Source: a virus. From it: DNA of 64,000 bases. This document shows, in pieces, positions 1 through 57,023 of this stretch. The DNA lies in the IMG/VR virus record IMGVR_UViG_3300042396_000450, positions 47,624-111,623 of that record. One strand, written 5' to 3'. The position numbers and the translations under genes are program-made. Position 1 is the first letter of the stretch, and every line of letters begins with the position of its first letter. Below the pieces are notes generated by a model, which did no database searches, was not told the DNA's origin, and saw only the letters and a program-made list of their open reading frames with translations.

Positions 1-191
1 AGATCACAGAATCTCACATTTAAATAATCTTCAACTAATCCATAATAACGTACTGTATTATAACCATTAGCTTTTAAATAAATACCAATATTGTGTAGTG
101 TAGCTGTTCTATCAGGTAATCCTTCTAATGGTGGTAATTTACCATTTAAAACATTATTAATAACGTCGCTAACTTGTTGTTTAGTTATCAT
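1..191 (-). CDS. Partial hypothetical protein (MITKQQVSDVINNVL...), runs off the window edge
   Basis: Manual translation. Its ATG overlaps the TGA of 188..436. N-terminus resembles MITKKDI/MFTKKDV of the 40784 and 41056 ORFs. Confidence 0.6.
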   Translation of the reverse strand, partial: MITKQQVSDVINNVLNGKLPPLEGLPDRTATLHNIGIYLKANGYNTVRYYGLVEDYLNVRFCD

Positions 192-436
192 AGTTTATCT
201 AATATGTCAAGGTAACTAAGTTGTGGTAATTCTTTAACAGCAGATAGATTTATTATTTCTACATTACAAGTTTTCTCTAACCAAGCTATTGTAGTCATAT
301 TAAATGGGTTAGCTATAGCGGACATTTGATTATAAGTACGTCCACTTAATCTAATTGATGTAGGTCTATTACCACTTTCTTTATAAGAACATCGAATTAA
401 ATTGCGGATATATGATTGAGCTTCTTGTAAGTTCAT
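188..436 (-). CDS. Small hypothetical protein with C-terminal YLDILDKL tag
   Basis: 82 aa ORF ending PQLSYLDILDKL. Confidence 0.7.
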   Translation of the reverse strand: MNLQEAQSYIRNLIRCSYKESGNRPTSIRLSGRTYNQMSAIANPFNMTTIAWLEKTCNVEIINLSAVKELPQLSYLDILDKL

Positions 437-472
437 ATATTATAATTACTCATATACACTATTTTCTTACTC

Positions 473-3400
473 ATGACAACAACCTATAGTTCGGGTAAAT
501 TACAACTTACATTTAATTCAGGTAATGTATCTGTAGTTAATGGTTCAGGTAACTTAGGAGTTACAGGAACTTACTATATCTCTATTCAAGGTCGGAATCT
601 AATTGGACTTAATCTGAATAGTACATTAGTTCCAGTTACTTTAACTACAACATCTACATTAACTATAACATTACCATCATTAGCTAGTGGTGAAACTTGG
701 TCTGACATAGTTATATCAGCATCAACTACTAATAACGTATCTGCCTTAACTCAAGTAATGGTAGTTAATAGTGCTGATTTTAATTCGCCAGTTATATTAA
801 CTAGTGTTGAGTTGTTCAAGCTAACTACACTTGCTCGTACTGTAGCTAACTCTGCTGCATTACCAGCAACACCAATTCAGGGACTTATAAGATACATAAC
901 TAACCTCAACTACTACTATGAATACGATGAATACAGTACAGCAACTGTAGATAACTTAACTGTATTAACTGCAACTACTGGTAGATGGCTTAGAGTAGGT
1001 GCAATTAGTACGTATATAACTGATACTACAGCTACAGATGGATGTGATCAAGATGTTCGCACACCTAATCTAATTGTTAATGCACCATCATATACTTGTG
1101 ATGGTAGTAAAGGTGATGGAGTTACCTTCTGGTTACGTAATGAATTTAGCACTATTATTTCAAGTGGAACTAGAATTAGTTGTACTGTGCGATTATTTGA
1201 GGAAGATAAATCTCAATTGTTCGATAGTCTCCTAATACTAGAACTACTTGGTTATGTTAATTTAATAACTGGAGTATTAGATGCTTCAGTTAGTAGTGGT
1301 GAAGTAACTTATCAACCTCGTAGTCAATGGTTAACATTACCAGAGGATCTCGACATTGGTTATGCTGCTGTAGTTAGAGTTAGTCCTAAATTCACCATTA
1401 CTGATTTAGATAACAATGTTCCATATCTAGCTAACTTAACTACATACGTTACATTTGCTCCAACTAGCGGTATCTATACTCCTGGTGTATTCGGCAACTT
1501 AATTTACAACGAATATGATAAGTGGCGCATTTATTCTGATGTTGGACTTAGTGTAATTAAGAGTAAGGGTAGTGGAATAGTTAATAATTATGAACTTAAT
1601 GATATATCCGCCGAAACTATAACAGGGTTAAGTTCTAATACCGCCAACCAGTATATTTTTCTTACTAGTAATGGTACTTCGTTCGCATCAACTACTAGTT
1701 CATTCGTTAGTGCAGTTAAGCGATGTGTAGTTAGTACAGTTAATGGTATAGGAACTCCAGTTAGTTATGGTAGCTTCGCGTTAAATAACACTAAGAAGTT
1801 ATCTGTAACTGTTAATTATCCAACTAGTGTTAGAAGTAATTATCCTGATGCTCTTATTGCAGGTTCTAGTAAAGGTAAGTTTAATGCAACTAATGTTGTT
1901 ATCTATATTAAGAATAGTAGTAATGCCGTATTCGTAACTGAAGTTAACATAACTCCATCTGCTAGTAATGATGTTTATGTACTTAATTATAGTGACTTTA
2001 CTAGTTCTACATTAGCAACACCATCTAGTAATTATGGTTTATATACACCATTAAGTGTAACTACTTCAACTCCATCTAACAGTAGTACATTTCCTACTGG
2101 TAGTTATGAAGTGTTTGTTGCATTTAAATACACTGGAGTTGTTACAGTTATTGATCATAGTGTTAGTGAGTTATATGAGATAACAAGTAACCTGAGTGAG
2201 TTATTCTCAACTAGTGCAACAGTATGGTATAGCGATAATGGTGTTCCTAGTAGTTTAATTGGTGAAGATGGTTCATATTATCTTAATTATGATAATGCTA
2301 ATATTTATAAGAAGGTTAATGATACTTGGAGTTTAGATGGAAATATTAGTGTTATTTCACCTTCATTTACTACTATTGCAGTTAGTGGACAAAGTAATGT
2401 AGTTGCAGATCAAACTAATGATAGTTTAACTCTAGTTGCAGGAACTGGTATTACATTAACTACTAATGCCACAACCGATGCTATTACTATTACTGGAACT
2501 AGCGTCACTAATACATTTAGTACAATAACTGTAGCTGGACAATCTGATATAGTTGCTGATAATGGAACTGATACATTAACTATTGCTGCTGGTAGTGGTA
2601 TTACCTTAACTACAAATTCTGCTACTGATACATTAACTATCGCAGGAACTGCTGTTAGTAATACATTTAGTACAATTGCAGTTAGTGGTCAATCTGATGT
2701 AGTAGCTGATAGTGCCAGTGATACTATTACGTTAGTTGCTGGAACTGGAATGACTATTACAACTAACACCACTACAGATACTATTACTTTTGAAAGTAGT
2801 GGTGTTAATGTTGATGTTACGCGAACTTCTACAATGTCTAATAGTATTGGAACTGGTAGTAAGACGTTTACTTATACTGCTAGTTCTAACTTAGGATGGT
2901 TAGTTAGTACGAGATTGCGTGCTGCGTATGATGTTTCTAACTATATGGAAGGTGTAGTTACTGCTGTTAGTAGTACCTCAGTTACTATTACATCAGATAA
3001 TGCAGTTGGTAGTGGAACTTATACTAGTTGGAACATAACAATAGCTGGAGATAAAGGTTCTACTGGAAGTGCTGGTAGTTTAAATGCCGCATCTGGATTT
3101 ATATTAACTCCTGTTGGAAGTCCCATTACTACATCAACTAACGAAGTTGGTTTCTATGTCGATAGCACTGATAACTTATTTAAAACTAGAGACGTTAATA
3201 ATGGTACAGTTAGAACATTAGCATCATTAAATAGAGTTCAAGCATTTACTCAAACACAATATGCTACACCTGTTATTAATAATTCTGCTACTGGGACAGT
3301 AACTTTAGACGGTAGTGCTAGTAATGTTTTCATACTAACTCTAACTGGAAACCTGACTCTGACCATGAACAACATTCAAGTTGGAGCAACTTATATCATC

Positions 3401-3574: not shown

Positions 3575-3576
3575 TC

Positions 3577-4269: not shown

Positions 4270-4306
4270 TTATGAAATTTGCTCAACAACTACTATCTAA
4301 CTTATT

Positions 4307-7997: not shown

Positions 7998-8014
7998 GAT
8001 TATAGTTAACTTAA

Positions 8015-10029: not shown

Positions 10030-10239
10030 TCAACACTTGTATAATCTGATGCTAAGTATCTATCCGCCACTCCAAACATGAATCCGCCAGTTAGTAATGT
10101 GAAACTAATCCATCTCAGTTGTTTCATCTGATTAATGTATCCAATCTAATAATTCATTACAAGTAATAACACCGTTACATTGATAAACGTAGTTAAGTTA
10201 TCTAAAGTACCACTTAACTTACATCAAGTTATCTATCAT
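10030..10239 (-). pseudogene. Decayed 69-codon ORF with five in-frame TAA/TAG stops
   Basis: Manual translation MIDNLM*VKWYFR*LNYVYQCNGVITCNELLDWIH*SDETTEMD*FHITNWRIHVWSGG*ILSIRLYKC; ATG overlaps the upstream stop. Confidence 0.4.
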
Positions 10240-10646
10240 AGTGCATTTAATATTGATTCATATGTAACAGGTGTATCATCATCATCATCTAATTCATTAT
10301 CACCATCAAAGTCATCTAATATTTTTTCTAATTCAGCATACATATTATGATATTGATCGTAATCTTTATTACGTTTAGCTGCTTTTAGTAAATCATAGAA
10401 ACTAGTGTATTTAGAATTAATAACATAGTCTACATAATCATAAGCCTCACTATCATCATTTAACCATTCTCGTAATTCATCATAACTATAATTATAACTA
10501 CCGCAAGTGTCGTCATTAGCAATAATATCAAGCATTCTATCATCTGAATCATAGAATGATATATTACTACCTAATTGATAATATAACTCTTGTGCTTTAT
10601 CAGTAGATCTACTAGATAAATATGCTGCAAATTCATAAATGTCCAT
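10236..10646 (-). CDS. Acidic hypothetical protein with C-terminal YESILNAL tag variant
   Basis: 136 aa, very Asp/Tyr-rich; GAGG SD upstream. Confidence 0.75.
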   Translation of the reverse strand: MDIYEFAAYLSSRSTDKAQELYYQLGSNISFYDSDDRMLDIIANDDTCGSYNYSYDELREWLNDDSEAYDYVDYVINSKYTSFYDLLKAAKRNKDYDQYHNMYAELEKILDDFDGDNELDDDDDTPVTYESILNAL

Positions 10647-12018: not shown

Positions 12019-12032
12019 ACTAACTCCTAAAT

Positions 12033-25360: not shown

Positions 25361-26151
25361 GTTAGCTTTATCTCTTTTAATTGAGTTAGATATTCCTGAA
25401 GTTGCGGTGTCTTAAATGTAATAGCTGGATTAATTACATCCTTGAAATCAATAGTCTTTCTAACTGTCCTACCATACTTAATCTTCTTAACATCAATATT
25501 AGGATTCTTAGCTTTAACTTTATCAACATATAACTTACGGAATAATTCCTTACCTATTCCAGAATCACTTAAACTATTTAGATTAAGCTTATAACTCTCA
25601 CTTAATAACTCACGCATCTCTAGTCGAGGTTTAAGATACTCAAGTACCTTATAAGTTATATCAAGATCATTCTTGTTGTAATCAATAAGTAAGTTAAGTT
25701 GATCTGGTCTAACTTCATCTAGATAATGTATGGGTAAATCTTGTATTCTATGATGTTTAAGATTAACTCCACACATCTTGAGCGACGTGGTGTTAAATCC
25801 AGCACGTAGAACTTCTAATACATCGTAAGAAACAAAGGGGAGGTCATACCTATATGGATTGCGGTCGCCATTAATTAGAGTTTGTGCAAATTCCCACAAT
25901 TCTAACTTACTGATATTAGGATGACGTAAAAGATGCACTAATACAGCATCGTCAAAGTTCCATCCATTGAAGCTAATTAATATAGAATTAGTTGCAATGA
26001 AGTTAGCTAAATCGCGCCTATCATCAGTATCGTCATACCATAGATAAGTCTTATATTCACTAGTTGCAAGTGAATAAGTAGTTAAGCAAAATAGGTTCTT
26101 GTATATCTCAATATCATATACATAACCATTGTCATATAATTTCTCTAACAT
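25357..26151 (-). CDS. Family B DNA polymerase, N-terminal 3'-5' exonuclease part
   Basis: YDIE (ExoI), FNGWNFDD (ExoII), YNKNDL (ExoIII); TGA overlaps the ATG of the polymerase part. Confidence 0.85.
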   Translation of the reverse strand: MLEKLYDNGYVYDIEIYKNLFCLTTYSLATSEYKTYLWYDDTDDRRDLANFIATNSILISFNGWNFDDAVLVHLLRHPNISKLELWEFAQTLINGDRNPYRYDLPFVSYDVLEVLRAGFNTTSLKMCGVNLKHHRIQDLPIHYLDEVRPDQLNLLIDYNKNDLDITYKVLEYLKPRLEMRELLSESYKLNLNSLSDSGIGKELFRKLYVDKVKAKNPNIDVKKIKYGRTVRKTIDFKDVINPAITFKTPQLQEYLTQLKEIKLT

Positions 26152-40570: not shown

Positions 40571-40783
40571 GATAAATCTATCCTAATTGTTCTAAATAAA
40601 CTGGTTCAACTACGTCATTAATCTTAACTAAAGTACATTTAACATTTAGTGCTAATTGTATTTCAGCTACTTCACCATATAATACCACACTTTCAACAGT
40701 AGCTGTAGTATTTAGAAAGTGAACTCTATCGCCTTTAGTTAAGGTTTGACCATATTCACGTAACACGGTTGTCATTATCCACA

Positions 40784-41059
40784 TTAGAGTTTCTCCAGTA
40801 TGTCAAGGTAATTTAATTGAGGTTCATTAGTATCAGGTAACTCATTATATATATGCCACTCTACATCTTCAAAATGTCTATCAAAGTCATTTTCTAATTC
40901 ATCCTCATTGTCTTCTAAATCAGAAAAATCAGCAGATATCCTCCTAACACTGTAATGATTTATTTGAGCTTGAGTTAATCTATTATCTATTTCCTCAATA
41001 TTTCCACCATATACATTATGTTCAATCATCCAATCTCTAATATCTTTTTTAGTTATCAT
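40784..41059 (-). CDS. Small acidic protein, paralog of 41056..41307, C-terminal YLDILEKL tag
   Basis: MITKKDIRDWM...PQLNYLDILEKL. Confidence 0.75.
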   Translation of the reverse strand: MITKKDIRDWMIEHNVYGGNIEEIDNRLTQAQINHYSVRRISADFSDLEDNEDELENDFDRHFEDVEWHIYNELPDTNEPQLNYLDILEKL

Positions 41060-41307
41060 AATTTATCCAGTATGTCAAGATAGTTAATAGTAGGTTCACC
41101 GTCTGGTAAATTGTTATAAATACTATTTCCGATCTCTCTAAAGTAAGCATCAAACTTAGATTCCCAATTATCATCAAAGTTACATGATATACTTCTAAGT
41201 GTTGTATCACCTTTATCTCTTAGTCGTTTGTCTACTTTTTGAACACAATCAACATTATATACATTGTTATTAATCATCCAGTCTCTAACATCTTTCTTAG
41301 TAAACAT
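41056..41307 (-). CDS. Small protein, paralog of 40784..41059, C-terminal YLDILDKL tag
   Basis: MFTKKDVRDWM...PTINYLDILDKL. Confidence 0.75.
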   Translation of the reverse strand: MFTKKDVRDWMINNNVYNVDCVQKVDKRLRDKGDTTLRSISCNFDDNWESKFDAYFREIGNSIYNNLPDGEPTINYLDILDKL

Positions 41308-41309
41308 AC

Positions 41310-41582
41310 TTATCTCTCAACAGTTACAGTTAAACCTTCAGCTACCAATTGATCTCTACTTAATTCAGCAAACGGTTCGGTATATTCTCCTATTAGAGCT
41401 TTACCATTAAGATGAGCATCCATCATAATTTGATAACTCTTATCATTACTGAATCCCATAACACTACTTAATATCTCTACTACAACTTCAGCAGGAAATA
41501 TGCTGTCATCATGTAGAATCAACTTAACCATTGGAGCATTGTTAACAAATGTAAATGGCTCTCTATCTAATACTGCATTCAT
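41310..41582 (-). CDS. clpS: ClpS-like N-end-rule adaptor
   Basis: KLILHDD....EVVVEIL...IMMDAHLNGKA...AE...GLTVTVE. Confidence 0.8.
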   Translation of the reverse strand: MNAVLDREPFTFVNNAPMVKLILHDDSIFPAEVVVEILSSVMGFSNDKSYQIMMDAHLNGKALIGEYTEPFAELSRDQLVAEGLTVTVER

Positions 41583-41874
41583 GATAAAGTCTCCTCGTAA
41601 TTGTTTAATGCTACTTGATATACGAATAATGCAGCTATTTGACCACGTAATACTGCATTACGATTAATTATCCATTGTTGATAATCAATTTCAATGTAAT
41701 CTAGAGCAGGATCACTAGATTCTAATCGGAGTTGATGAAGACGATGATCTGCATTACGTTGAGCTATTTGTAATTCAATATCTCGAATTAAATACTCACA
41801 TTTAAGTATGGCAGTTCGGAGTCTACTTAATGTTAGAAATTTAGGAAACTCTGTCCAATTGATAGTTTTAATGT

Positions 41875-43335
41875 CTAGAAAGCGAGGGATTTTGATGCGT
41901 TGGTCTGTTCCAGTTGTAGTAGTAACCATGATATGACAGCCTCAATTCGTGTTTTAATAGTTGGATATTTGTCAGGTGTCGTGTTGTTGAATGATTTACA
42001 TTGAACTAATCTCCAATCAGTTATATTATCAGTTCTAGAATATTTACCTTGAGTAAATTCACAAGTAAATCTATACTTATCAATCCTAATACTGAAGATG
42101 CGGCGATTCTCATTAAGTGAATTAGAATAACCACCTACACAGTGATTATTGTATCTACCTTCATCTAGTAACTGAAATGACGTAACTAACTCAATTACTT
42201 CACATTCTAGGTAATGTCTATTAATTGGTAATGGAGTTACAAGTACCTTATTTAATCTAGTTTTAGCAGAGTTAATTTTTTCAGTTATCTTTAACTTAAT
42301 TAAATCAATACATAGAGAATCCGAATAAAAGTCATTCTCCAATATACCGATAACCCATTTACCTTCAACAGTAACTAGATTCTCAATGAACTTAAATAAC
42401 TCTAATTGTTTATCTAGATTAAGATACTTAAACCAATTAGTAATTTCATAATGTTCATTAGTAAACTTACCTAATCGCGCCAATTGAGTTTTCCAACCTT
42501 TTGGAAGAGTAAGAAAATAGGTATCATTAGTTATGCAAGCATTACATAACGTGTAGTATTTAAGTAACTCTAACCATTGTTCCTTCTGATGCTTCTTAAC
42601 TCCATTACCATATAGTCGTTGAAATACTATGTTCCAGTGTTTATCATTAAATGCTAATGACTTTAACTCAGGTATTACATAATTAGAAATAACTTCAATT
42701 GGTTTAGTATCAACTAATTTAAAGTAATTAGATATCAAATTCAACTCATCTTCATTAATAAATGATGGTACTTTAATAGCTGTTGGAGCATACCGTGGAT
42801 TAATATGTGCGATATAACCAACTATCTTATCTACATCTAAATAAGCATCGGGATATTGACGTTTCTTCTTCAGTAATCTAAATAAAGTAAATTTAGAGGT
42901 ATTGAAGTTAACTACTTCTATTTGTCGTGTTACTAGAAATGCCGCAAATTCTGGTCTATATATTAATTGTTTAGTAGCTAGATCAATACCAATCATGCAA
43001 CAATTAATATCGAATGTGTCAATGACATTAGTTAGTTTACTATTAATTGAATAAATATCAACATAGTTAATATTATCAACTCTACTAACATTAAAGATTG
43101 TAAAATGCTTATCTTGGTAATATAAGTTTTTAATTTTATGAGTTGTTCGATAATAGTCACAATTTTCTTGTATAACTAATCTAAATACATCTATATCACC
43201 ATACTCTGATTTAAGTCCAGTTACTGCACTATATACAATAGATGCAATTGCTCCACCAGCTACAACACCTTCATTTGGTAGTTCTGGTAATTGAGATAGA
43301 ATAAAGTCACTTGTGATAGTATCTAAAGTCATCAT
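41875..43335 (-). CDS. Nucleotidyltransferase-fold protein with a PcfJ-like C-terminal domain
   Basis: VAGGAI...GDIDVF...FDINCC N-domain; EGRYNNHCVGGY...IFSIR C-domain. Confidence 0.65.
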   Translation of the reverse strand: MMTLDTITSDFILSQLPELPNEGVVAGGAIASIVYSAVTGLKSEYGDIDVFRLVIQENCDYYRTTHKIKNLYYQDKHFTIFNVSRVDNINYVDIYSINSKLTNVIDTFDINCCMIGIDLATKQLIYRPEFAAFLVTRQIEVVNFNTSKFTLFRLLKKKRQYPDAYLDVDKIVGYIAHINPRYAPTAIKVPSFINEDELNLISNYFKLVDTKPIEVISNYVIPELKSLAFNDKHWNIVFQRLYGNGVKKHQKEQWLELLKYYTLCNACITNDTYFLTLPKGWKTQLARLGKFTNEHYEITNWFKYLNLDKQLELFKFIENLVTVEGKWVIGILENDFYSDSLCIDLIKLKITEKINSAKTRLNKVLVTPLPINRHYLECEVIELVTSFQLLDEGRYNNHCVGGYSNSLNENRRIFSIRIDKYRFTCEFTQGKYSRTDNITDWRLVQCKSFNNTTPDKYPTIKTRIEAVISWLLLQLEQTNASKSLAF

Positions 43336-43753
43336 AATTAAAATGGGGTAAATTAATTACCCCAACTAAGGTTACTCTATGTCTAATAAATCATCTACAT
43401 CTTCTACTACATCTTCTGCAACTGGAACATCAGTTAATTGATTTACAACTAATGCAAGTGATTCACCTTTAGTTTTCCAATCAACTAAACTACTAATTAA
43501 CTTCAATAACTCAACATTAGTATAATTAAGTTCCTTAAACTCATCAACTATACGTGTTGAAGCATTCATAACTTCAGGATATAATGTGAGTATTGCTGCT
43601 AGTATTAATTCAAACTTACTCTTAATGTCAGTACCACATGACTCAGCATACTTGAGGATACCTGTTTTACTACGTTTAGGAACACCTGCTATTAAGGCTG
43701 CTATCTTTTTTCTAGTTTCATCATCCAATCCCAACTCAACCAATGAATTTTCT

Positions 43754-44107
43754 ATGTTATTAGCCACGATTGATTTCTCCAAAATTATAAGTGATCTTGC
43801 GCCTATCCTATCTGCTGCTGTTACGGGAATCGGCACTTATTTTCTTACCCGTAACAATAATGGTGATAAACTATCTCAACGTGAATACGACTATATAACT
43901 CAAGAGCGTAATCGTATTCAAGTATTAATAAATGATGAAATAACTCAGATACGTAAAGATAAGGATGAATTACGTACTGAATTGATTGAGATACGTAATA
44001 AGTTAACTGAGTTAGAGAAAGTTGAAGATGAATGTCAACTTAAACTATATCAGGCTCAAGTTATTATTACTCAACTACGGGATCATAACGCATCTAATAT
44101 GTCTTGA
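43754..44107 (+). CDS. Holin-like membrane protein (one TM segment + coiled coil)
   Basis: LAPILSAAVTGIGTYFL hydrophobic segment then a long coiled coil; late (+) strand; start inferred at the 43754 ATG. Confidence 0.45.
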   Translation: MLLATIDFSKIISDLAPILSAAVTGIGTYFLTRNNNGDKLSQREYDYITQERNRIQVLINDEITQIRKDKDELRTELIEIRNKLTELEKVEDECQLKLYQAQVIITQLRDHNASNMS

Positions 44108-44234
44108 TAACTAACATTAGATGATGTAACATTATCATCTAATAAATCAGCGTATGTTAGATGAAGATAATCCCGTAAATCTTCTCTATACTTATACCTA
44201 CTCGTCGAAAATATCCACCTTCAAACTTAGTCAT
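44083..44234 (-). pseudogene. Frameshifted small ORF ending in the SYQDILDAL tag
   Basis: ATG ACT AAG TTT GA / AGG TGG ATA...; one extra base gives MTKFxRWIFSTSRYKYREDLRDYLHLTYADLLDDNVTSSNVSYQDILDAL. Confidence 0.5.
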
Positions 44235-44733
44235 AAGTTACCAATCATAAGAATCCTCTGGGTTATTGAAACACCGAAAGATATGATCTTCCTCTGCATC
44301 ATAACCATTTAAATCCTCATGTATTACTTGACATTCACGGTTATTACCTGAATACCACACTTTAACATTTACTACACGTCGCATTTGTAATCGATCATTA
44401 ATCACATAAATAATTTGTCCAATTTTAGGTATCCAGAACTTATCTGATACATTAACCGTTCTACATCTATCTCGCCAACTAACAGCATCAGATTTATTAT
44501 GATATAACTTTCCTTGAAATTTCCAAGCTGGAACTTCTTCAATGTCACCGAGATTATTAGCATAGTAAATATCATTAGTTAGATACTTAGCTATGTTAAC
44601 TAACTCATTATATTCATTGTAGTTAGCTATCTTGAATGTATTAAGTTTATCAGGATCTATCACATCACCTCGTAATAGTCCATTGAATATAATAGCAGCT
44701 AACTCAGTATCAACACAACGATCAATAACAGGT

Positions 44734-45041
44734 CTATAATCCATAATACACTCCAGGTTTAGGTAAATCTCTATCAGGTAATCCAGTTATAATTGTAATT
44801 ATCTCTAAATCAATACTAGGTATATAATTACTTAAATACATAGAATTACATGACTTAAATGCTGTAAATAAATCAATTTCTCTATTAAAGAACTTATCAT
44901 CTACAGGTAAGAAACATAGGATTGATAATCATCTTCTTGTTCTAAACATAATGCTAGATGTTTAACACCGTTATAATTAACAATTCCCATCATTAAAAAA
45001 TCATACCATTCAGTATCTAATTGATATAGTAGTTTATTCAT
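44734..45041 (-). pseudogene. ~100-codon ORF with a 1-nt frameshift near 44920
   Basis: MNKLLYQLDTEWYDF...DDYQ continues in the shifted frame as LCFLPVDDKFF...GVYYGL, filling the gap between neighbours. Confidence 0.5.
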
Positions 45042-45810
45042 TCCAGTAATCGTACTCATTAATTGCTAATTTAGAAACAGTTTCAACTACAGCCGCCAAA
45101 TCACACTGGTATAAATTGCTACATGATAGGCTGTTCAACTCAAGTACATGATAACTACCATTGGCGAAACATACATCTACTGTATAGATATCATCTGGAC
45201 ACCAAGTTAATTCATTTAATATTGATTGAAGATATTCAATTGCTGCGTTAGATGTTACATTTGTTTCAATTGGCAGATATTGAGATCCTGCAACGATAGT
45301 ATTACCAGTAACTACAAATCTCCACTCCCAATCTACTTTTTTAACTGGTGAACTAATAACTAGTAACTCAGGATGGAGATTCAACTTAATGAACTCATCT
45401 CTAGTATAAGTTCCACCATTAAACTCCTTGAATCCAATATCAGGTCGAACAAATAATCTATCAGCATACCATCGTCTAATTAACTCAGATCCTGACATCA
45501 TGGTGTAATTGGTATTCAACATATACTTACCCCAGTAAGCATAATATGTTGAACAATTAAAGTTATCACGGTTACAATATGTGCCAGGAATCCATAGTGT
45601 GTACTCCACTTCACTACTTACATTAAGTGAACCTCTGAATATAACTGGTTGACTTAGTAGTTTAGTATATCGTTGATTACGTGCTATATCGTCAACGTAG
45701 TAATCATGCTTATAATCAATCTCAATCACATTATGACCTTGTTTTCTTACCTCTTCAATAAGTTGAACTTCGTTATCAAATATACCATGTTCAATAACCC
45801 AAGTGACCAT
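45034..45810 (-). CDS. ATP-grasp protein (DUF4343/R2K-like)
   Basis: LFVRPD..FKEFNG, EWRFVV, YTVDV, VLELNS. Confidence 0.75.
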   Translation of the reverse strand: MVTWVIEHGIFDNEVQLIEEVRKQGHNVIEIDYKHDYYVDDIARNQRYTKLLSQPVIFRGSLNVSSEVEYTLWIPGTYCNRDNFNCSTYYAYWGKYMLNTNYTMMSGSELIRRWYADRLFVRPDIGFKEFNGGTYTRDEFIKLNLHPELLVISSPVKKVDWEWRFVVTGNTIVAGSQYLPIETNVTSNAAIEYLQSILNELTWCPDDIYTVDVCFANGSYHVLELNSLSCSNLYQCDLAAVVETVSKLAINEYDYWNE

Positions 45811-46334
45811 AATTATTCTCCTAATGGATAAATGTCATCTAAAAACACTAACTTAACCCAATACATATCTAATGTAAGATCCTTAGTTATTGATACTACA
45901 TCAGCATAAGTACCCCAGAAATAAACATAACCAGTATCTAATAACCTGAGAGCTTCTGACTCAGTAAGAAAAATAGTTATGGTTCTGATTGATGTAAATA
46001 TCATGAGTTTAAGTAATCATATTCTTCCCAATACTTATCTCTGAATTTATAAAGTATCTCTAAATTTTCATTACCGTAATCACCTAATGACAACACTCTA
46101 TTAATAGTATATTGCCAATGATGAGCTTTATCATAATAAGGTGTTATTTTAATGTGACAGTAACATCCATCAACTGCAACATCATATATCTGATTAGCTA
46201 ATATCCAAGTGTCACGATGGGCTAATTTAGCTGCATTATGAGAATCCATACAATCTTGATAGTTTGTATAACTTTCATATTCAACATCATATAACAATCG
46301 TATTATCTCTTGTATCTTATTCCACTTAACATCA

Positions 46335-46748
46335 TTACTTAACATATTTAACCTGCTTAATAATGTAAATAACTACACATAGAATCATTATGGCGGGAAT
46401 AATATGGATGGCGCGATCTACACACAACTTATTATGTATGTTGACATACTGCCAAGATAGACTAACAAATAAACTTGGTATGCCTATATCTATTAGTATC
46501 TCAACTATGTGAAGTAGTGATCTGTATAAGCTTGACTTCCGCGAGTTATCGTATTCACGTTGAATCTCTAACCAGTAATGTTCATCATGTCCTAATAGTA
46601 TAGCTAGATGTTTAGCTAGATATTCATTAATTGGTTTAACACCTTCAATAGTAAGTAATATGTCTGATTCACTATATCCAGTTGATTTAGCTATCTGAGA
46701 TATAGTTACATTACTATTTATTATTGTTGTTCCAAGTTTATCGTTCAT
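46335..46748 (-). CDS. HigA-like HTH protein with C-terminal hydrophobic segments
   Basis: TISQIAKSTG...G..PINEYLAKHLA..LG....WLEIQREYD. Confidence 0.6.
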   Translation of the reverse strand: MNDKLGTTIINSNVTISQIAKSTGYSESDILLTIEGVKPINEYLAKHLAILLGHDEHYWLEIQREYDNSRKSSLYRSLLHIVEILIDIGIPSLFVSLSWQYVNIHNKLCVDRAIHIIPAIMILCVVIYIIKQVKYVK

Positions 46749-47132
46749 AATTACTCCCTATACATTCTGTTACCCGTAGAACTATAACCAATTTAAGTGC
46801 ATCTACTATTAAATCAACTAACCATTCATCTACATCAACAACTAGATTGTACCAATTAACATTATCACTTGATGTTTGAACAACCCAATCTTGATATACA
46901 GATGGCTTCCTTGACACATCTATTTTTCTTACGTACTTTATATCTTCTCTATTCATCAGAATCTTCTCCATTAAGAAATTGAGTTAATGTTGCATTAGGA
47001 TAATGCTTTTTACAATCTTTATAAGCTTGATATTTGCTGTATTTAGCAGGAGAATATTTAACTTCAGATTTATCGTCTATTGCAAATACATATTGAATCA
47101 TATTATTAAGCGGGCTATTAACCCGCACTACT

Positions 47133-48278
47133 CTAACCTTCTTTAACGAATGGATAATTAAAATCAATACGACCTTCTCTCATAGCTGCAATATCCCATC
47201 GTTCAGTTGTATTGCAAGTGAAGATTGTAATGATTTGAGGTAAACGAGTTTGTTCAAATGGTGTAATAGCTGTATAGACATTACCATCTAACCAAGATAA
47301 CATCTTCTCAGTTGCGCCATCATTATTAGATGTCCGACTTGGAGCTATGTTATCTGCATCATTAACAACTATGGCTATTTTAGATAGGTATGCTGGAGGT
47401 GTAAAACTTCTCATACTAGCACTATCCATGTTGATGATGATGTAACCTAGTTTAGATAACACTTCCTTACAATAGGAGTTACTCCAACTAGTTTTACCAA
47501 CACCGGGTTCTCCAGTTAATATTACATTGAGTTTATTAATCTCACCTAACTCAAGTTGTTTAACTTTATCATTAATAACATTAGTTAATTCAGCATTATT
47601 AACGAAACTACTTAATTCATAGTTAGCATTAGGATAACCAATTTGATAATTATCACTTGTTATATAAGCTGCTAAATTAGATGCAGCTTTATCAATGTAA
47701 CTATGTAATGTAGTTTCATCAGCAAAACTAACTCTAATACGCGGATTGTCCCCATATTGAGTATGGATAATACACGTTGCGTTATCCCATTTAACTTCGA
47801 TAGTTCCAACTAAAGTTAACTTAGCAACATCTACATTAACATCATGTGATAGAAATACTCTACGACTATCATCCCATACGTATTGAATAATACTATTAGG
47901 TAGACCAAGTAAATTAACTATTCGATAGATAATACTTAATTGAAGTAGGTCTAATATGTGAGGTTTATTATTGCTATTATTAACCTTCCCAGTATTACGA
48001 GTTGTATCATCTACACTAATGTAGTAGAACCCACCTTCATCTTCGATATTACACTTACTAGTTTCAACGATGAACGTATCCCAACTATCAGATACAGTTT
48101 CGCTAAATAGAGCAATAATATTAGCTATAGGATGTCTAGTTACATTGAACAATTCATTACTAACTGTAGATATAAACTTACCTGCATTCCAGAGATTAAT
48201 GCGCGATATATCAATCTCAGGAGTGAATATTTCCCAACCTTCAGCTACTAGTTGAGCAATTTCTGTTTGTTTAGACAT
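47133..48278 (-). CDS. AAA+ ATPase
   Basis: GEPGVGKT, VVNDAD, LSWLDG, FTCN, AAMREGRID. Confidence 0.8.
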   Translation of the reverse strand: MSKQTEIAQLVAEGWEIFTPEIDISRINLWNAGKFISTVSNELFNVTRHPIANIIALFSETVSDSWDTFIVETSKCNIEDEGGFYYISVDDTTRNTGKVNNSNNKPHILDLLQLSIIYRIVNLLGLPNSIIQYVWDDSRRVFLSHDVNVDVAKLTLVGTIEVKWDNATCIIHTQYGDNPRIRVSFADETTLHSYIDKAASNLAAYITSDNYQIGYPNANYELSSFVNNAELTNVINDKVKQLELGEINKLNVILTGEPGVGKTSWSNSYCKEVLSKLGYIIINMDSASMRSFTPPAYLSKIAIVVNDADNIAPSRTSNNDGATEKMLSWLDGNVYTAITPFEQTRLPQIITIFTCNTTERWDIAAMREGRIDFNYPFVKEG

Positions 48279-48707
48279 TTTAATTCCTTTTTCTTACGTT
48301 GTTTAAATAGTGACTTGAATTTGCGTCGTCTACTCATTAATCAATGATTCAAGTTTCTGTTTAGCTTCAACAGTTTTCATTAACTCAGTGTTATAAATAT
48401 CCATGATCTTACTTGCCCATTCACCTAGAGATCTTTTACGTATACCATAGTTCATGTGCATATACATAACCTGCTCAACTAATTTCATAGCTAATACTGG
48501 ACTTTTAATTTGATCTGGAACATCGTTGAGAAAATCAAAGAACTGATTATCTTTCATTAACTTATAATCTTTAACTGCCTCCTTACGTGGAAACCAATTA
48601 TAGTTAGCCATAAATCGAAAGTTATGAATCATTGCATCAAGACGTTTAAACATATAACACCTATCTGACTTATATACGTCAATTTTACAATTAAGACAAT
48701 TATACAT

Positions 48708-50006
48708 CTAGATTTTCTCTCTATATGTACCACCACTCTGAAGACTAATGCGACGGAGATCCGCATTCTTACTATCTAATATGAAACTATGCAATTTAGC
48801 TCCTTTAAGCATAGACAATGTTATGTTACCAGCATAATCATCACCATCATTAACCACTACAAGATGTTTGTCCTTAGCACTTATTTGATTAGGATGTTCA
48901 GCAGCTATCTTATCTGCTTGAAGTAATGCCTCAACTATACAATTACCAACTTCAGTACCTCCTTCATTAAAACCCTCATTTTTAATAACTGAATTGAAGA
49001 AACTACTTATATCAGCATAATCAAATGGGAGAAAGTAGAATTTATGACAATGTTCCTCAAAGAAAGAGAAGTTGAGCCAACATTCGCCAGCATAAACACG
49101 TTTAACTAGGTTATATATAATCCCCATAGCTTTATAGTTCTTATTGGCAGAACGCATAGATGCACTATTATCAACTATTAAGTTAACAAATGGAATCTTG
49201 GATTGTTTTTCATACCTTTCATTAACATGACATTCATTCTCAATGATCCGCGAATTAAGTACATTGCGAGGTAGTATTAACTCTCTCGGTGGTATCTTAT
49301 GCAGTTCATCAAATCCAGTTATGGGACGACTACGAACTATATCTCCATTAACTTTACGTATTAATGTAGGAGTTGGTGCAGTAGAAAGCGCAGCTATCTT
49401 ATTCATAACAGCACTAACACGTAGTATCTCAGTCCAGGATTTGTCCAATTTAGCAGCACGATTTACGTCATTTACATCATTATTACCAGTTATCTTCATG
49501 TCAACTGAATCCATTGACTTAGCTGCTTCTAATTTCTTCTTAATACTAACTGCTAATTGTTTAGCTCTTCCTCTACTCATGTCTTGATCTTTATCAAGAA
49601 ACTTTATAGTATTAATAGCTTGTTCGAGGGGACTATCTCCTGGAACATCTACACCCATTATTTCTTTAATAAACTCCTGAGTATCAGTTTGAACCTTTAC
49701 GTCATGTTTATGCCATTCATCTTGAGCCTGACTTAGCTTGGTTACAGTTCCACCGCTAGGTAACTTATATTCACCATTAGACTCAGTATGTAGATTGCGA
49801 TAATTAGTATTACTTCTGATATGTTTAAGAGTAGTTAATTGACCACCACTCCACATATTAGCTAGATCCGTCACTAATTCTTCATCATAATGCGCGACAT
49901 TCATCTCACTTGTCATTTGACGTATTTCCCTTGGAAATACAGTGTAATAACTACTTGCTTCTGTTCTAATTGTCATAGTAATAGTGGGGATAATACGTCC
50001 CCACAT
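48708..50006 (-). CDS. VWA-domain protein (ViaA-like), copy 2
   Basis: MIDAS DNSAS, GGT, NDG. Confidence 0.8.
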   Translation of the reverse strand: MWGRIIPTITMTIRTEASSYYTVFPREIRQMTSEMNVAHYDEELVTDLANMWSGGQLTTLKHIRSNTNYRNLHTESNGEYKLPSGGTVTKLSQAQDEWHKHDVKVQTDTQEFIKEIMGVDVPGDSPLEQAINTIKFLDKDQDMSRGRAKQLAVSIKKKLEAAKSMDSVDMKITGNNDVNDVNRAAKLDKSWTEILRVSAVMNKIAALSTAPTPTLIRKVNGDIVRSRPITGFDELHKIPPRELILPRNVLNSRIIENECHVNERYEKQSKIPFVNLIVDNSASMRSANKNYKAMGIIYNLVKRVYAGECWLNFSFFEEHCHKFYFLPFDYADISSFFNSVIKNEGFNEGGTEVGNCIVEALLQADKIAAEHPNQISAKDKHLVVVNDGDDYAGNITLSMLKGAKLHSFILDSKNADLRRISLQSGGTYREKI

Positions 50007-50014
50007 AATGTTAA

Positions 50015-51190
50015 TTACTTAGTTACTGTTGCAGATGCTAATGCAGGAATTTCATTCATAGTTTTTCTAGCTTGATTACCTACCGTGTTAATAAGATCAT
50101 TTCTCTCTTTAACTAAACTATCTGGAATATTACTAACCTTAATAATTTCACCCTCCATAAGTTGAAGTGAATTAACTAGAGCAAATATAGATACAACATC
50201 TTTTTTCGCCTTATATTCATTAATCTTATCAACGGCTCTATCAAAGTGAGTCTTAAATGTATCAAGACTAGATTTAGCATCATTGTAAATCTTCTGTTGT
50301 TGTATTTCTTCTTCTAAGTTAGATAGAAGTGATTGATCCCAACTTGGAAGATAATTGAGTACATTAAGTTGTTCAATAGTAGCAACTGATTTATTACTCA
50401 GTAACGCCTGAGACTTAATCATATTAATAGTCCACATAAACATACGAGGACTAATAATACGACCTTCATTACCAGATTTCTCAGCTAGAGAACACAGAAT
50501 ACCTTGTAACTCGCTATCTAATTTAACTTCTTCACGAGAAATACGAGCTTCATCAATCTGAGCAATAGTTAACTTGCTATCATCATTCTTCTTATTACTA
50601 ATAGCACGAATTAATCTAGAATAATCACTACTATCATGACTATCCCATTCATGACGTACAATAATGAAACGTTGAAGAAACGCATCACATGAATTAACTT
50701 CAGATGGTGGTAATTCTTCTATACGAACATAAGGATTAACGTTAGTTGCTCCAACTAACAACCTATTAATACTCTTAACTACTTCGCCATTAAGTGTTAA
50801 TTGCTTATTAGTAATTATAGCTTTAAGTACGCTAAGTGCTTGAAAACTAGCATCTAACATCTCTTCATAAAAGAAGCTATGATTACGTAATATACTAGCT
50901 CCTACATTATAGTGAGCTAATGTAATGTCTTCCTTATCAGTCTTAGTAGTACGAGCTATTGCACCACCTTTAATTAAACTAGCTGTAGTCTCAGGATCAC
51001 ACTCTAACATTGCAGATGATCCATCAATGTTGTCAAATACAGCTTTAATCATCTCAGTTTTACCGTATCCTCCCTTACCATATAACATAAGAGGAATACC
51101 AGATACAACAGCTAATTCCATAGAGTTAGCAAATGTAGCGGTGTTAATAAATCCAGCGTTAGATAAAACGTTGTTTAAATTGAATGTCAT
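50015..51190 (-). CDS. MoxR/RavA-like AAA+ ATPase, copy 2
   Basis: GKGGYGKT, FFYEEMLDA, GATN, AFLQRF, ISPR. Confidence 0.8.
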   Translation of the reverse strand: MTFNLNNVLSNAGFINTATFANSMELAVVSGIPLMLYGKGGYGKTEMIKAVFDNIDGSSAMLECDPETTASLIKGGAIARTTKTDKEDITLAHYNVGASILRNHSFFYEEMLDASFQALSVLKAIITNKQLTLNGEVVKSINRLLVGATNVNPYVRIEELPPSEVNSCDAFLQRFIIVRHEWDSHDSSDYSRLIRAISNKKNDDSKLTIAQIDEARISREEVKLDSELQGILCSLAEKSGNEGRIISPRMFMWTINMIKSQALLSNKSVATIEQLNVLNYLPSWDQSLLSNLEEEIQQQKIYNDAKSSLDTFKTHFDRAVDKINEYKAKKDVVSIFALVNSLQLMEGEIIKVSNIPDSLVKERNDLINTVGNQARKTMNEIPALASATVTK

Positions 51191-51199
51191 GTGATTCTC

Positions 51200-52345
51200 C
51201 TAGATATGATTACGATATGTACCACCACTAGCAATAGATAACTTCTGTAAGTTATAATTACTGCTATCTAATATAAAACTATGTAACTTAAATCCATCTA
51301 AATCAGGTAGAGTTAAGTTACATTCATCTTGACCATCATTAATTACAATTAGTTGTTTATTAGTTGATATTACACCTCTAGACTTACTAATAGCCTCTTT
51401 AATACACCTCTGAACATCAGTACCCCCTTTATCAAATGATGTATGATAGATAGCATTCCAGATACTAGTAACATCTGAATCCTTAGTTACGTGATACCAA
51501 TCGAAACAAGTTCTCTCAAAGTAAGAAAAAAGTAGTTCACACTCGCCCGATTGGACACGCTTAATTATGTTGAATATGATACCAAGAGCCTTATTCATCT
51601 TGTTATCACGTTGCATAGAACCACTAACATCACATATTAGCGTTATAAATGAAAGTTTATCCTCCTTCCGATATCGTTCAATAATGTGAGATTCATTATT
51701 AATGATGCGATAACTGAGATAATTAACTGGATTAATCAACTCAATTGGATTGATTAGATTAAGTTCATCAAATCCGCGTATAGGTCTAGTTTCGCAGTAT
51801 TCACCAGTAGAATCGGCGATCATAGTATTACTAGTATCTATGATACCTAACTTATCAAGAGTGTCACTAGCACGTAATACCTCAGCTAATTTATAACTGA
51901 TTTCACCAGATAGAAGTAACTTCTCATCGGCGGATCTACGTCTCAGTGATTTAACAGTTTCCTTAATACTCTTAACCTTTTTTCTTACCTCATGATTATT
52001 ATTGAATATTGGTAATGTTAATTCACTATTACTATTATCATCACCAGTTTCACCATTAGCTAATAACTCAAGTATGTTAAATACTTGTTCTAATGGAGAT
52101 CCCGATAAACTACTAGCTAATGATGGTACTTTCTCTAGGAAAGATTGAACATTGACTTCATAATCAATGTTATCTATACACTGTTGCTGCATATATTCAA
52201 CTGAAGTTAATGTACCTCCAGTTAACATATTAAACATATCAGTAACTAAAGTAGGACAATAGTTATAAATGTCGAATTTAGCAGCAACTACATCCATTTC
52301 ATCAGTAGTTGGAGTAACTGCATCTAGATGTGCGATAGTTCTCAT
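51200..52345 (-). CDS. VWA-domain protein (ViaA-like), copy 1
   Basis: MIDAS DVSGS, GGTD, NDG; paralog of 48708..50006. Confidence 0.8.
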   Translation of the reverse strand: MRTIAHLDAVTPTTDEMDVVAAKFDIYNYCPTLVTDMFNMLTGGTLTSVEYMQQQCIDNIDYEVNVQSFLEKVPSLASSLSGSPLEQVFNILELLANGETGDDNSNSELTLPIFNNNHEVRKKVKSIKETVKSLRRRSADEKLLLSGEISYKLAEVLRASDTLDKLGIIDTSNTMIADSTGEYCETRPIRGFDELNLINPIELINPVNYLSYRIINNESHIIERYRKEDKLSFITLICDVSGSMQRDNKMNKALGIIFNIIKRVQSGECELLFSYFERTCFDWYHVTKDSDVTSIWNAIYHTSFDKGGTDVQRCIKEAISKSRGVISTNKQLIVINDGQDECNLTLPDLDGFKLHSFILDSSNYNLQKLSIASGGTYRNHI

Positions 52346-53520
52346 AGTTGAATTGGAGTTAATAACTTATCTAGTTTTATTGCAACTTCATTTAACAGAG
52401 ATTTAAACTGCAACTTAACTTCATTGTATTTAACTTCAGTATCATCATCATACGTAACTGTAGTTAGAAACTCATCATATAACTTAGTTATAGATAAATG
52501 AAGTGTTTGTAAATGCCAATATAATTCCAAGTTATTAAAATCAAAATTAGTTGATTCTTCATACATTTTCTTAACTTTAACTAATCTACTACTAAAGTTA
52601 TCTAACTTTTCATTAGATACCTGTCTCAATTCAATCTCCTCAATTGCTTCATCAACTTCATCCCAATCAACGCTCCAGTAACTTAGATAATCAATAACTC
52701 TGAAATCACATCTCTCAACTACATTAGACCCACGCAATAATGCAGCACTTTTAATTAATCGCACTGTCCATTGAAATGCTCTAGGACTAACAGTATTACC
52801 ACTATTAGCACTATCTTCAGCTAACTTAGCTAATAGTCGCCATAAGTCAATATTAAATTCAATTAATTTAACATCATTACGCCATTTATCAATGTCAGTT
52901 AACTCAAATTGAACAACTGGTAATTCGTTAACTGATGGATATAATGCAATATAATCGTCAGCATTATGAGATTTCCAACCATGTTCAACTATCATGAACC
53001 TCTGAAGAAATGCAGCACAACTATTACGTTGATTCTCACGTACTGTAGATGTTACAGATGTGGGATTAATGTTAGTCGCACATACTAGAATCTTACAATT
53101 ATTAATGATCTCATCACCATTAATATGTATTTTCTTACCTGTAATCACAGCCTTCAGGAAACTAAGTGCATTGAAACTCGCATCTAATACTTCTTCTAAC
53201 ATGAAGTAGTCATGCTGTAGTAGCGAATTAGCCACATTGTAATACGCTTCAGTTAAACTACCACCTTCTTGATTAATGGTTCTTGCAATTGCGCCACCTT
53301 TAATAGCAGCACTAGTTGTTTCAGGATCACATTCAAGCATTCCGAAACGTCCATTGAACAGAGATAATGCACTAATTAACATCTCTGATTTACCATATCC
53401 ACCTTCACCATGATAGATGATTGGGATGTCAGCTAATACGCTCAACATAAATGTATCGGCAAACTCATCTACATTAATAAATCCATCATTATTGAGCTTA
53501 TTGATTAAGTTATCTAACAT
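52342..53520 (-). CDS. MoxR/RavA-like AAA+ ATPase, copy 1
   Basis: GEGGYGKS, MLEEVLDA, CATN, AFLQRF, VSPR. Confidence 0.8.
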   Translation of the reverse strand: MLDNLINKLNNDGFINVDEFADTFMLSVLADIPIIYHGEGGYGKSEMLISALSLFNGRFGMLECDPETTSAAIKGGAIARTINQEGGSLTEAYYNVANSLLQHDYFMLEEVLDASFNALSFLKAVITGKKIHINGDEIINNCKILVCATNINPTSVTSTVRENQRNSCAAFLQRFMIVEHGWKSHNADDYIALYPSVNELPVVQFELTDIDKWRNDVKLIEFNIDLWRLLAKLAEDSANSGNTVSPRAFQWTVRLIKSAALLRGSNVVERCDFRVIDYLSYWSVDWDEVDEAIEEIELRQVSNEKLDNFSSRLVKVKKMYEESTNFDFNNLELYWHLQTLHLSITKLYDEFLTTVTYDDDTEVKYNEVKLQFKSLLNEVAIKLDKLLTPIQL

Positions 53521-53582
53521 GGAAACTCCTATTTATTTAATTCTTTGATGCGACGCATGAATACGGTGTAGTTGCTAAATCT

Positions 53583-54080: not shown

Positions 54081-54469
54081 TAATCAAGTACCTCTTAGCT
54101 ATATGAAACCAGTGTGGACACAAATCACTTAACTTACTCATCAGATACTCAGTTTGTCCAGGTAGGCATGGTTTAACATCGCGTTTATGAATGCGGCGTT
54201 TAACTGTAATTAGTTGTCTTTTTCTAGTTACATAACTGAAATATTTCTTACCTATTGAGTTATAGCAAAATCCAAGAACATCGGGTTTAAGTTTAGTTAC
54301 TGGTATACAAGCTCCCCATTTACCATCTTTAATTAAAATTAAATCACCTCTCTTATTTACACCATCGGATTCTATTAGTATCAGATAATCAGGATTACTA
54401 ATTGCATAATGGAACAACACTGACCAAGTGTAATTCGCAACTAATTTACAGTCAGTACGTTTACTCTCG

Positions 54470-55714: not shown

Positions 55715-55922
55715 AACTATCTATTTCTTCGCTGAACTAAATAATCCAACTAGATATGAATTAGTTAGTACACATAACCATAGATCAACTTGAGTTGTGA
55801 TACCAAATGTTAATAACCATTTAGTTATAATAACTTGAAGTAACCATCCTCCTAGTACAAAAACACTAACTGTTAATACTAACGCACCTACAGCTTGTAA
55901 TGTTAATTTCATGAGATTCTCC

Positions 55923-56132
55923 TTATTTAACTACTTCAACTAATTGAACTTCAACTAATACTGGTTGGCGCGATTTGTCATTTAGTAATGCTTTTAATAC
56001 ATTACTACTATGATGTTTCATTTTAAAAACACGCGCACTAGATAACTTCTTTGACTACCTACCCCATTGTGTTCCTGACGCTCTAGATTGTCGCCAATAC
56101 TCGCCAGTCAACGAGTCTTTAATTATGTACAT
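55923..56132 (-). pseudogene. 69-codon ORF with in-frame TAG (56055-56057), probably from TGG
   Basis: MYIIKDSLTGEYWRQSRASGTQWGR*SKKLSSARVF...; resembles the C-half of 57016..57471 (YVVKNTKTNKYY...W...DATTF). Confidence 0.6.
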
Positions 56133-56858
56133 TCAGTTTACTACCAATCATCCAACCCCGTAATTCCGACTATCAAATCAACTAATTCATCCTCCGACAA
56201 CTGGCAGTTAGTTAGTTCAGATTGTTTCAGAATATCATTATCTACAAACCTATGAAATTTAAAAAGAAGAGTTTCTGCATTTGCAGCACACATTACGTCT
56301 TTAAATTCTGTACCATAGTAAATCTTTCCAGTTAAACTCATATCTGAGTTAATAGTTATATCAGTTAATACGTAACCTTTATATTCGTTCATTTCTAACT
56401 CCAATAACTACAAGTGAACTATTAGTTAATTGAGTTAAGGTACATCAATTAACTAATACATGATCTACATCAACTAAACTAATGTGAACTTAGTAAATGT
56501 AAGTTTACCATCATTTACATTAGGTACGATAACTTCATCACCTTTAACTAAAGATTTAATACCTCGTTTACGCTTACCTATATCAATAGATAACGTATCT
56601 TTAATTAACTTAACTTTGCGAGACTTAGTGTAACTCAAGTTAATAGCATTCTCTAATTGCTCTCTATTAAGAAGTGCATTAAACTCTTGATATCTTAATG
56701 TACAGTTAGCAGGTAGAATGGAAACAATTGCGGCATTTAGATTAAGTGCGAAGTAAATCATGTTATCTCCAGTTAGAATGAGTTAATTGAACAGTAGTTA
56801 AATAATGTTAATTAAGTGCATTATAATTGCAACTTAATAAATGAGTTAAAGATGTTAA

Positions 56859-57023
56859 TCATAACAGATTTAGAATGTCTTTGTATGATGTAGGTTGTTT
56901 AACTTGATGTTTGTTTAATTGACGTATAGCAAATCTCCCTAATCTATCAAAAGTGACAAAGGTTAAGTTAGTGTTCTCTAAATCAACATCAGGTAAAGTA
57001 ACTTTAGTAGCCCACTTATTCAT
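56859..57023 (-). CDS. 54-aa protein ending in the SYKDILNLL tag (below the ORF-track cutoff)
   Basis: MNKWATKVTLPDVDLENTNLTFVTFDRLGRFAIRQLNKHQVKQPTSYKDILNLL. Confidence 0.65.
   Translation of the reverse strand: MNKWATKVTLPDVDLENTNLTFVTFDRLGRFAIRQLNKHQVKQPTSYKDILNLL

Follow-up and report, generated by a model that had tools for sequence, protein, structure and literature searches.

Why should a set of small proteins in one lake phage, some of them unlike one another throughout their bodies, end in the same nine residues? The question is raised by a stretch of 64,000 nucleotides (nt) of virus DNA (positions 47,624 to 111,623 of IMG/VR record IMGVR_UViG_3300042396_000450), called the window below, which is the right 64 kb of a genome represented by a single 111,623-bp contig of a lake-water phage with 32% GC. 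A first-pass annotation, made from the letters of the window, had listed six C-termini with a common tail. All six were present at the coordinates given, on the minus strand and with a stop codon directly after each tail. A scan of the whole contig recovered these six copies and a seventh just outside the window (genome 47563-47814, ending VSYLDILNAL-stop), whose tail lies 57 bases left of the window. The consensus, [S/N/T]-Y-x-[D/S]-I-L-[D/N/E]-x-L-stop, closes exactly these seven reading frames, which are designated by letters as follows:

3..191, minus strand: 5' part of tagged gene B (genome 47563-47814); 83 amino acids (aa), start MITKQQ, first 63 codons in the window.
188..436, minus strand: tagged gene E; 82 aa, isoelectric point (pI) 8.7, ends PQLSYLDILDKL, tag codons 191-214.
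10236..10646, minus strand: tagged gene G; 136 aa, very acidic (pI 4.05), tag 10239-10262.
40784..41059, minus strand: tagged gene A2; 91 aa, pI 4.3, start MITKKD, ends PQLNYLDILEKL, tag 40787-40810.
41056..41307, minus strand: tagged gene A; 83 aa, start MFTKKD, ends PTINYLDILDKL, tag 41059-41082.
44083..44217, minus strand: remnant of tagged gene D; 45 open codons without a start, ends NVSYQDILDAL, tag 44086-44109.
56859..57023, minus strand: tagged gene F; 54 aa, pI 9.7, unrelated body, ends PTSYKDILNLL, tag 56862-56885.

The sharing of this tail was confirmed to be far above chance. In a crude set of 166 open reading frames (ORFs) covering the whole genome, the core pattern Y..IL..L was observed at six intact C-termini, against 0.006 expected, and at no internal site, with 1.2 occurrences expected anywhere. 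At least one C-terminal copy appeared in 16 of 2000 shuffled proteomes, so the excess at C-termini is real by both comparisons. Moreover, a position matrix made from all tails found was applied to the C-termini of all six frames and to 33,031 internal windows. The seven tails scored 23.6-30.5 bits, the runner-up C-terminus 1.6 bits and the best internal window 12.2 bits. The linker between body and tail differs in length and sequence among carriers, as in G, where an acidic run of D leads into the tail TPVTYESILNAL. The earlier description of a tag placed exactly at the C-terminus, behind a variable Pro/acidic/polar linker, was thus borne out.

Such conservation could belong to the peptide or to the nucleic acid beneath it. 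The tails write Tyr as TAC or TAT, Ile as ATA or ATT, and Leu with four codons; two Leu positions of the tail use four and three different codons among paralogues. TTGACA is present in three copies in the window (four of all seven), and YTATGAT in five. The first-pass annotation had reported the synonymous codon use and both window counts correctly, and had argued from the codons for selection on the protein. Contrary to the codon usage of the genome, Asp is written GAC in all six copies that have it (14% genome-wide) and the stop is TGA in six of seven; the Ile codon is ATA in six of seven. Together with bodies that are swapped and lost between conserved ends, these features would suit a DNA or RNA role with the peptide as a by-product: TTGACA could be a promoter, or the sequence could couple translation or provide a recombination handle by which cassettes are swapped.

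The codons of a relative, L015, speak for the peptide. L015 was the sole moderately distant relative compared at the DNA level and is about 80% identical in protein A. Its tails are written TAC CTT GAT ATA TTG and TAC TTA GAT ATA CTG, with synonymous changes at four codons (TAT>TAC, GAC>GAT, CTT>TTA and CTG>TTG). Because L015 keeps the residues through synonymous changes while losing TTGACA, we conclude that selection acts on the peptide, not on the DNA, and the DNA-element objection that the first-pass annotation had raised against itself fails on the same codons. In addition, three copies never had TTGACA, and where TTGACA and TATGAT occur together, a distance of 12 nt is too short for a sigma-70 promoter. 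YTATGAT reads as a Leu codon with the stop TGA after it. The stop of E overlaps the ATG of B and the stop of A overlaps the ATG of A2, and at both junctions the ATG of this heptamer starts the next tagged gene (ATGATAACTAAA reads M-I-T-K). G and F each stand alone with a gap of about 100 nt behind them and hence no coupled gene. The same ATGAT(A/T)..AAC letters after G and F open very short frames only; they may be a relic, the tail having arrived there with a junction between family genes. A role in DNA or RNA is already mostly ruled out, and we consider it extremely improbable.

The bodies that bear the tail fall into one probable family and two outsiders. Families A, A2, B, C and D (C is seen only in relatives) encode proteins of 79-91 aa whose first residues, M-[I/F/M]-T-K, do not recur at the start of any other gene in the genome. 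They also have in common an N-x-L-P-D-like box with an invariant Leu, which lies 9-13 residues ahead of the tail Tyr. When profiles were compared after trimming the last 12 residues, A and A2 matched firmly (E 5e-29), A2-B, B-C and C-D gave weak N-terminal or pre-tail matches (1e-4 to 9e-4), and D-E gave 0.04. Neither F nor G, trimmed in the same way, matched any other carrier. A, A2, B, D and probably E therefore look like one diverged paralogue family of about 85 aa, as far as sequence comparison can tell. The earlier statement that only the pair at 40784 and 41056 is alike upstream of the tag was mistaken, since the M-[I/F/M]-T-K start and the invariant Leu are common to several carriers. 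Its notion of diverse cargo survives for F and G, whose bodies are unrelated, and is weakened for the five carriers that resemble paralogues. Because the trimmed F and G are unlike the others and the charge of the carriers ranges from pI 4.05 (G) to 9.7 (F), the tail is not simply part of one fold.

The tagged proteins had no PHROG match and no sequence match to solved structures, and the ESM Atlas returned nothing for them. An AlphaFold model of A has a four-helix body with a predicted local distance difference test (pLDDT) score of about 90, followed by the linker and a terminal helix at residues 76-82 with pLDDT 58-66; only one of five models was confident. This model fits a helix that is tethered and not firmly packed. 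A Foldseek search with it against PDB and BFVD gave nothing below E = 1. The model of G (pLDDT 42) was too poor for use. The tagged genes are covered by contigs from RNA libraries, which cannot show transcription. In a database variant of F (P0058, 71 aa), Trp takes the place of the TGA stop and 17 more residues follow; a variant allele or a gene call made with a different genetic code could explain this.

How stable is the tail in other phages? Protein searches found homologues in lake metagenomes only, all from one phage lineage. No GenBank phage was related at the DNA level, and scans of IMG/VR and JGI metagenomes gave near relatives only; the more distant relatives P0010 and P0019 sit on JGI contigs of 122-125 kb. 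Lake-water metagenomes of at least 18 studies hold the stretch almost whole, and the phage is abundant. The tail was kept in every orthologue found, while the bodies fall to 45-60% identity. Specifically, Y, L, D, I, L and L are invariant among the 30 sequences of the A/A2 family, with body identity down to 49%. The G orthologues (60-96% identity) retain T-P-x-T-Y-E-S-I-L-[N/D]-A-L, and the tail is likewise retained in the orthologues of families B, C, D and F.

The carriers themselves come and go. One IMG/VR relative has no A2 and the gene order ClpS, A, 68-aa ORF. In L015, the place of A2 is taken by another body (family C) that bears an A2-type tail and is followed by the same downstream DNA, which shows that the tail moves between bodies as a module. 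Natural populations differ in the middle of A2, where metagenome contigs break off or diverge. The copy at 44083, previously called frameshifted, is instead the 3' remnant of a deletion of about 176 nt between short direct repeats that is polymorphic in lakes. D is intact (85 aa) in the relatives P0046 and L013, whose match to the window does not begin until ATATTTTCG. The deletion junction falls at about 44206-44217; between these positions, some 176 additional bases are present in contigs from one lake DNA run and two RNA-library runs. The deleted form was also present in another lake DNA run. The carriers are individually dispensable and exchangeable, with their ends kept.

A motif that is confined to C-termini, held at the level of the peptide and borne by unlike bodies with a high turnover could be a docking handle read by one partner. 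This is the reading that we prefer, with confidence that is evenly balanced. The nine C-terminal residues would form a short linear motif, tethered to the body by the variable linker and composed of an N-cap residue (S/N/T), a two-turn amphipathic helix and a free carboxylate. One face of the helix would present Y, I, L and L, and the other D and D/N/E. The motif resides on the small, fast-evolving family of about 85 aa (A, A2, B, D and probably E, with family C in relatives) and would have been transplanted onto the two unrelated small proteins F and G, so that the same peptide could bring all carriers to one binding site on one partner. Shared terminal peptides are among the few clues, from sequence only, to a joint role of small phage proteins. 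If one partner does read the tail, the seven orphan proteins of this abundant lake phage would all act at a shared point, and the tail could act as a portable handle to fish out that partner. If the tail is merely a family signature, the carriers are an ordinary lineage-specific gene family.

Several points weigh against a docking handle. We infer both the binding of a partner and the reading of all copies by one partner, and no binding partner was found. The GAC and TGA bias suggests recent copying or gene conversion, either of which can look like conservation inside a single genome; for the excess nucleotide identity, recent copying among paralogues is the best explanation. Five of the seven carriers are probably paralogues, and much of the sharing would thus reflect common descent and not independent recruitment. 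The tail is present on merely 4% of the genes (7 of about 166). Moreover, the tail is known from one phage lineage only.

The neighbourhood of the tagged genes offers candidates for such a reader. D, A and A2 share a 13-kb block on the minus strand (40578-53520) with genes for ClpS, an R2K protein, a classical AAA ATPase and two MoxR/VWA pairs:

40578..40784, minus strand: 68-aa ORF downstream of A2; no family match above the cut-off.
41310..41582, minus strand: ClpS homologue, directly upstream of A and A2.
45034..45810, minus strand: R2K-clade ATP-grasp protein; candidate C-terminal ligase, tie to the tails not supported.
47133..48278, minus strand: classical AAA ATPase, 381 aa.
48708..50006, minus strand: VWA-like protein, 432 aa; VWA-like C-terminal part with metal ion-dependent adhesion site (MIDAS) D-N-S-A-S; candidate reader.
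50015..51190, minus strand: MoxR-type AAA ATPase (AAA_5), 391 aa.
51200..52345, minus strand: VWA-like paralogue of the 432-aa protein, 381 aa; MIDAS D-V-S-G-S; VWA match E 0.004, below the cut-off.
52342..53520, minus strand: second MoxR-type AAA ATPase, 392 aa; AAA_lid_8 just under the cut-off; paralogue of 50015-51190.

For a phage of 111 kb, this block has an unusual density of genes for protein remodelling or modification. Each MoxR is followed by one vWA-like paralogue with a DxSxS MIDAS motif. The two VWA-like paralogues also share a C-terminal peptide of their own (S-G-G-T-Y-R-E-K-I in 48708-50006 and S-G-G-T-Y-R-N-H-I in 51200-52345). This MoxR had no tblastn match in 50,697 phage records, and both ClpS and this MoxR are nearly absent from cultured phages. 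A second and weaker likeness among C-termini, of the acidic-aromatic type, occurs around R2K: the R2K protein ends N-E-Y-D-Y-W-N-E, the 114-aa ORF upstream of it (46001-46345) ends E-E-Y-D-Y-L-N-S, and the 168-aa ORF downstream (44238-44744) ends P-E-D-S-Y-D-W.

As to the partner of a docking handle, our guesses fall, in order, on a conserved host protein, on the phage's own MoxR/VWA pairs and on other phage proteins. Capsid loading, a host protease, RNA polymerase and MoxR/VWA, all named in the first-pass annotation, are candidate hubs, and MoxR/VWA is the leading candidate for a phage-encoded reader. A broader proposal, which we consider unlikely, is that the tail is a local 'dialect' of a widespread and undescribed phage addressing system. 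A genome-specific C-terminal helix would plug many small early proteins into one phage-encoded reader, here most likely the vWA domain of the two MoxR/VWA pairs, which would act on the tagged proteins together by loading, remodelling or releasing them. A complex prediction of A against ClpS, A2 and the 68-aa ORF gave values of 0.00 and 0.01 for the interface score ipSAE, which argue neither for binding nor against it.

ClpS, which had been proposed as a hub, is linked to the tails solely by its adjacency to A and A2. ClpS reads N-termini with a destabilising first residue (L, F, W or Y), and the phage homologue, as read from its sequence, retains the H-D-D and His residues of an N-degron pocket. 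The shared element is C-terminal, and the carriers begin MF, MI, MM, MN or MD, which are not ClpS N-degrons; the initiator Met is expected to stay before such second residues. Nor was a target for host mimicry found. A search of 185,579 bacterial genomes for the commonest tail, Y-L-D-I-L-D-K-L-stop, gave 24 matches, most of which end short non-coding frames and two of which end unrelated proteins (frames of 89 and 208 codons). These are chance matches only, and the tail was on no host protein or prophage in these genomes.

Beyond this block, the tagged genes lie in an arm for replication and nucleotide metabolism, on the strand opposite to the structural genes; the capsid gene is outside the window. 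E and B belong to a separate three-gene minus-strand cassette amid plus-strand genes. The minus-strand arm encodes a split family-A DNA polymerase, a DnaB-like helicase, an exonuclease and a RuvC-like resolvase for replication. Additionally, it encodes a class II ribonucleotide reductase with cobalamin adenosyltransferase, thymidylate synthase and dihydrofolate reductase, and a PNKP, RNA ligase and Thg1 set for RNA repair. The polymerase (23924-26151) appears split in that the match of a 478-aa ORF to PHROG 1252 is confined to the C-terminal polymerase part; the 264-aa ORF upstream may hold the remainder of the family-A polymerase. A 660-aa protein (60773-62755) belongs to PHROG 1735, to which no function is assigned. 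Homologues of it occur in 549 phage records, among them Ackermannviridae, Bacillus and Caulobacter phages, and some are annotated as 'putative DNA-directed RNA polymerase'. Neither Pfam nor the sequences of solved structures gave a match to this protein. No tRNA genes were found in the window. Throughout the genome, a Shine-Dalgarno-like AGGA or GGAG stands upstream of about one-fifth of the genes, which hints at a host that uses this signal little.

Other explanations of the tail itself take its partner to be the family, a protease or a ligase. Rather unlikely in our view is self-association, in which the tail helix would bind the family bodies, for example their N-terminal M-[I/F/M]-T-K helix, to form head-to-tail chains or A+A2 and E+B pairs, with F and G plugging in. 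Such an assembly would agree with the conservation of both family ends around a variable middle and with the ATGA overlaps, which couple neighbouring tagged genes translationally. An unrelated jumbo phage also has the same layout of shared N- and C-termini with unlike middles. However, F and G have no N-terminal motif, and fixed pairs are not required, because one relative lacks A2 and part of the population has lost D, with the neighbours of both genes kept. It is distinctly unlikely that the tail is a C-terminal degradation signal or adaptor site through which an AAA+ protease or unfoldase, of the host or of the phage, removes these early proteins at a set time. C-terminal degrons are known from ssrA and other ClpXP, FtsH and Tsp signals, and they typically stand strictly at the C-terminus and close with a hydrophobic residue; ClpS, the two MoxR ATPases and the classical AAA ATPase are in the same block as three tagged genes. 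Nevertheless, the usual degrons need the last 2-5 residues, with small or non-polar ends such as LAA, whereas here nine residues are conserved, Tyr, Asp and Ile-Leu among them, and the tail closes with D/N/E-x-L. The N-terminal specificity of ClpS also counts against a degron, as does the failure to recognise a protease domain in the protein scans of the window or an HExxH motif in the 166 predicted proteins of the genome.

Very unlikely, in turn, is the idea that the R2K ATP-grasp protein recognises the tail and extends or modifies its free carboxylate, like RimK and tubulin ligases. A free carboxylate as substrate would account for the strict end position, the R2K gene is 0.3-4 kb from three tagged genes, and the R2K family is predicted to ligate peptides onto proteins, with targets not identified (PMC4431377). 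The closest R2K-bearing phage record, LR756500.1 (L046, an uncultured jumbo phage of 462 kb, the one cited above for its layout), has a shared-tail family of its own near the R2K gene. In that record, 11 ORF ends read N-A-D-[D/E]-F-G, with none for the reversed control pattern. The five ends seen in full read N-A-D-[D/E]-F-G-[F/M]-[F/L]-D-N-stop, on proteins with an M-K-Y-I-K-E-Y-E-E-F-like start and unlike middles, two of which are leucine-rich-repeat proteins. This is an independent family with shared ends. Its tails are unlike the present one and are dispersed over 320 kb (at 12-16, 181, 199, 313, 323 and 332 kb, with an AAA_5 ORF at 202.5 kb). Moreover, the other three of the four R2K-bearing phages compared have no shared tails within 20 kb of the gene, and the link between R2K and the tails is one of proximity alone.

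The docking reading can finally be set beside known tail systems. Two likenesses were set aside: the FtsZ C-terminal peptide, D-Y-L-D-I-P-x-F-L, has a conserved Pro and Phe that are absent here, and of the beta-clamp motif, Q-L-x-L-F, the Q-L occurs in two copies only. In T7, gp2.5 and gp4 dock on the DNA polymerase through C-terminal tails that are acidic runs with an aromatic last residue. The present phage resembles T7 in combining a family-A polymerase with shared C-terminal tails. However, its tail would be an amphipathic helix ending in Leu, and its carriers, unlike those of T7, are not recognisable replication proteins.

The targeting peptides of family 1 encapsulins are short C-terminal peptides on a flexible linker that send different cargo to one site on a shell of HK97 fold, whose inner face they bind, with the consensus SDGSLGIGSLKRS and a G-S-L core (PMC8346489). 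The placement of a short C-terminal peptide behind a flexible linker is alike in the two cases. In contrast, Y-x-D-I-L-x-x-L does not match SDGSLGIGSLKRS, and the tagged genes are in the replication and nucleotide-metabolism arm, opposite in strand to the structural genes.

For vWA-MoxR systems, Kaur, Burroughs, Iyer and Aravind (2020) proposed that the vWA domain captures a substrate peptide, which the MoxR ATPase then releases, and small, fast-diverging proteins with a conserved C-terminal peptide adjoin these systems (PMC7159879). The phage likewise has a MoxR AAA+ protein with a vWA partner, albeit with a weak VWA Pfam match (E 0.004), and small, rapidly diverging proteins with a conserved C-terminal peptide. 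It differs in that the defining zincin-like metallopeptidase, which would cut off the C-terminal peptide, is missing (no HExxH in the 166 predicted proteins and no peptidase family in the scans) and no radical-SAM gene was seen. Furthermore, the tail is none of the FxSxx, RxD, acidic-run or FtsH-associated types, and the setting is a phage genome instead of the bacterial conflict islands described there.

In T4, near-identical tails behind divergent, flexible linkers on gp43, gp55 and gp33, which differ in function, dock interchangeably on the gp45 clamp (PMC2988020). Here, the polymerase-domain protein (23924-25360) ends TVEFEND and has no tail, and no clamp or clamp loader was found when about 70 window proteins were compared with Pfam and PHROGs, a scan that left aside the left arm and several small ORFs and could miss remote homologues. 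Since the polymerase is without the tail and no clamp was found, the present tail would not be a member of the T4 system. In addition, its motif Y-x-D-I-L-x-x-L has helical periodicity, and its carriers are tiny and without assigned function. T4 is nevertheless the closest described mechanism, for in both phages a near-identical, short hydrophobic-acidic C-terminal peptide is carried by several proteins, with a divergent linker between peptide and body.

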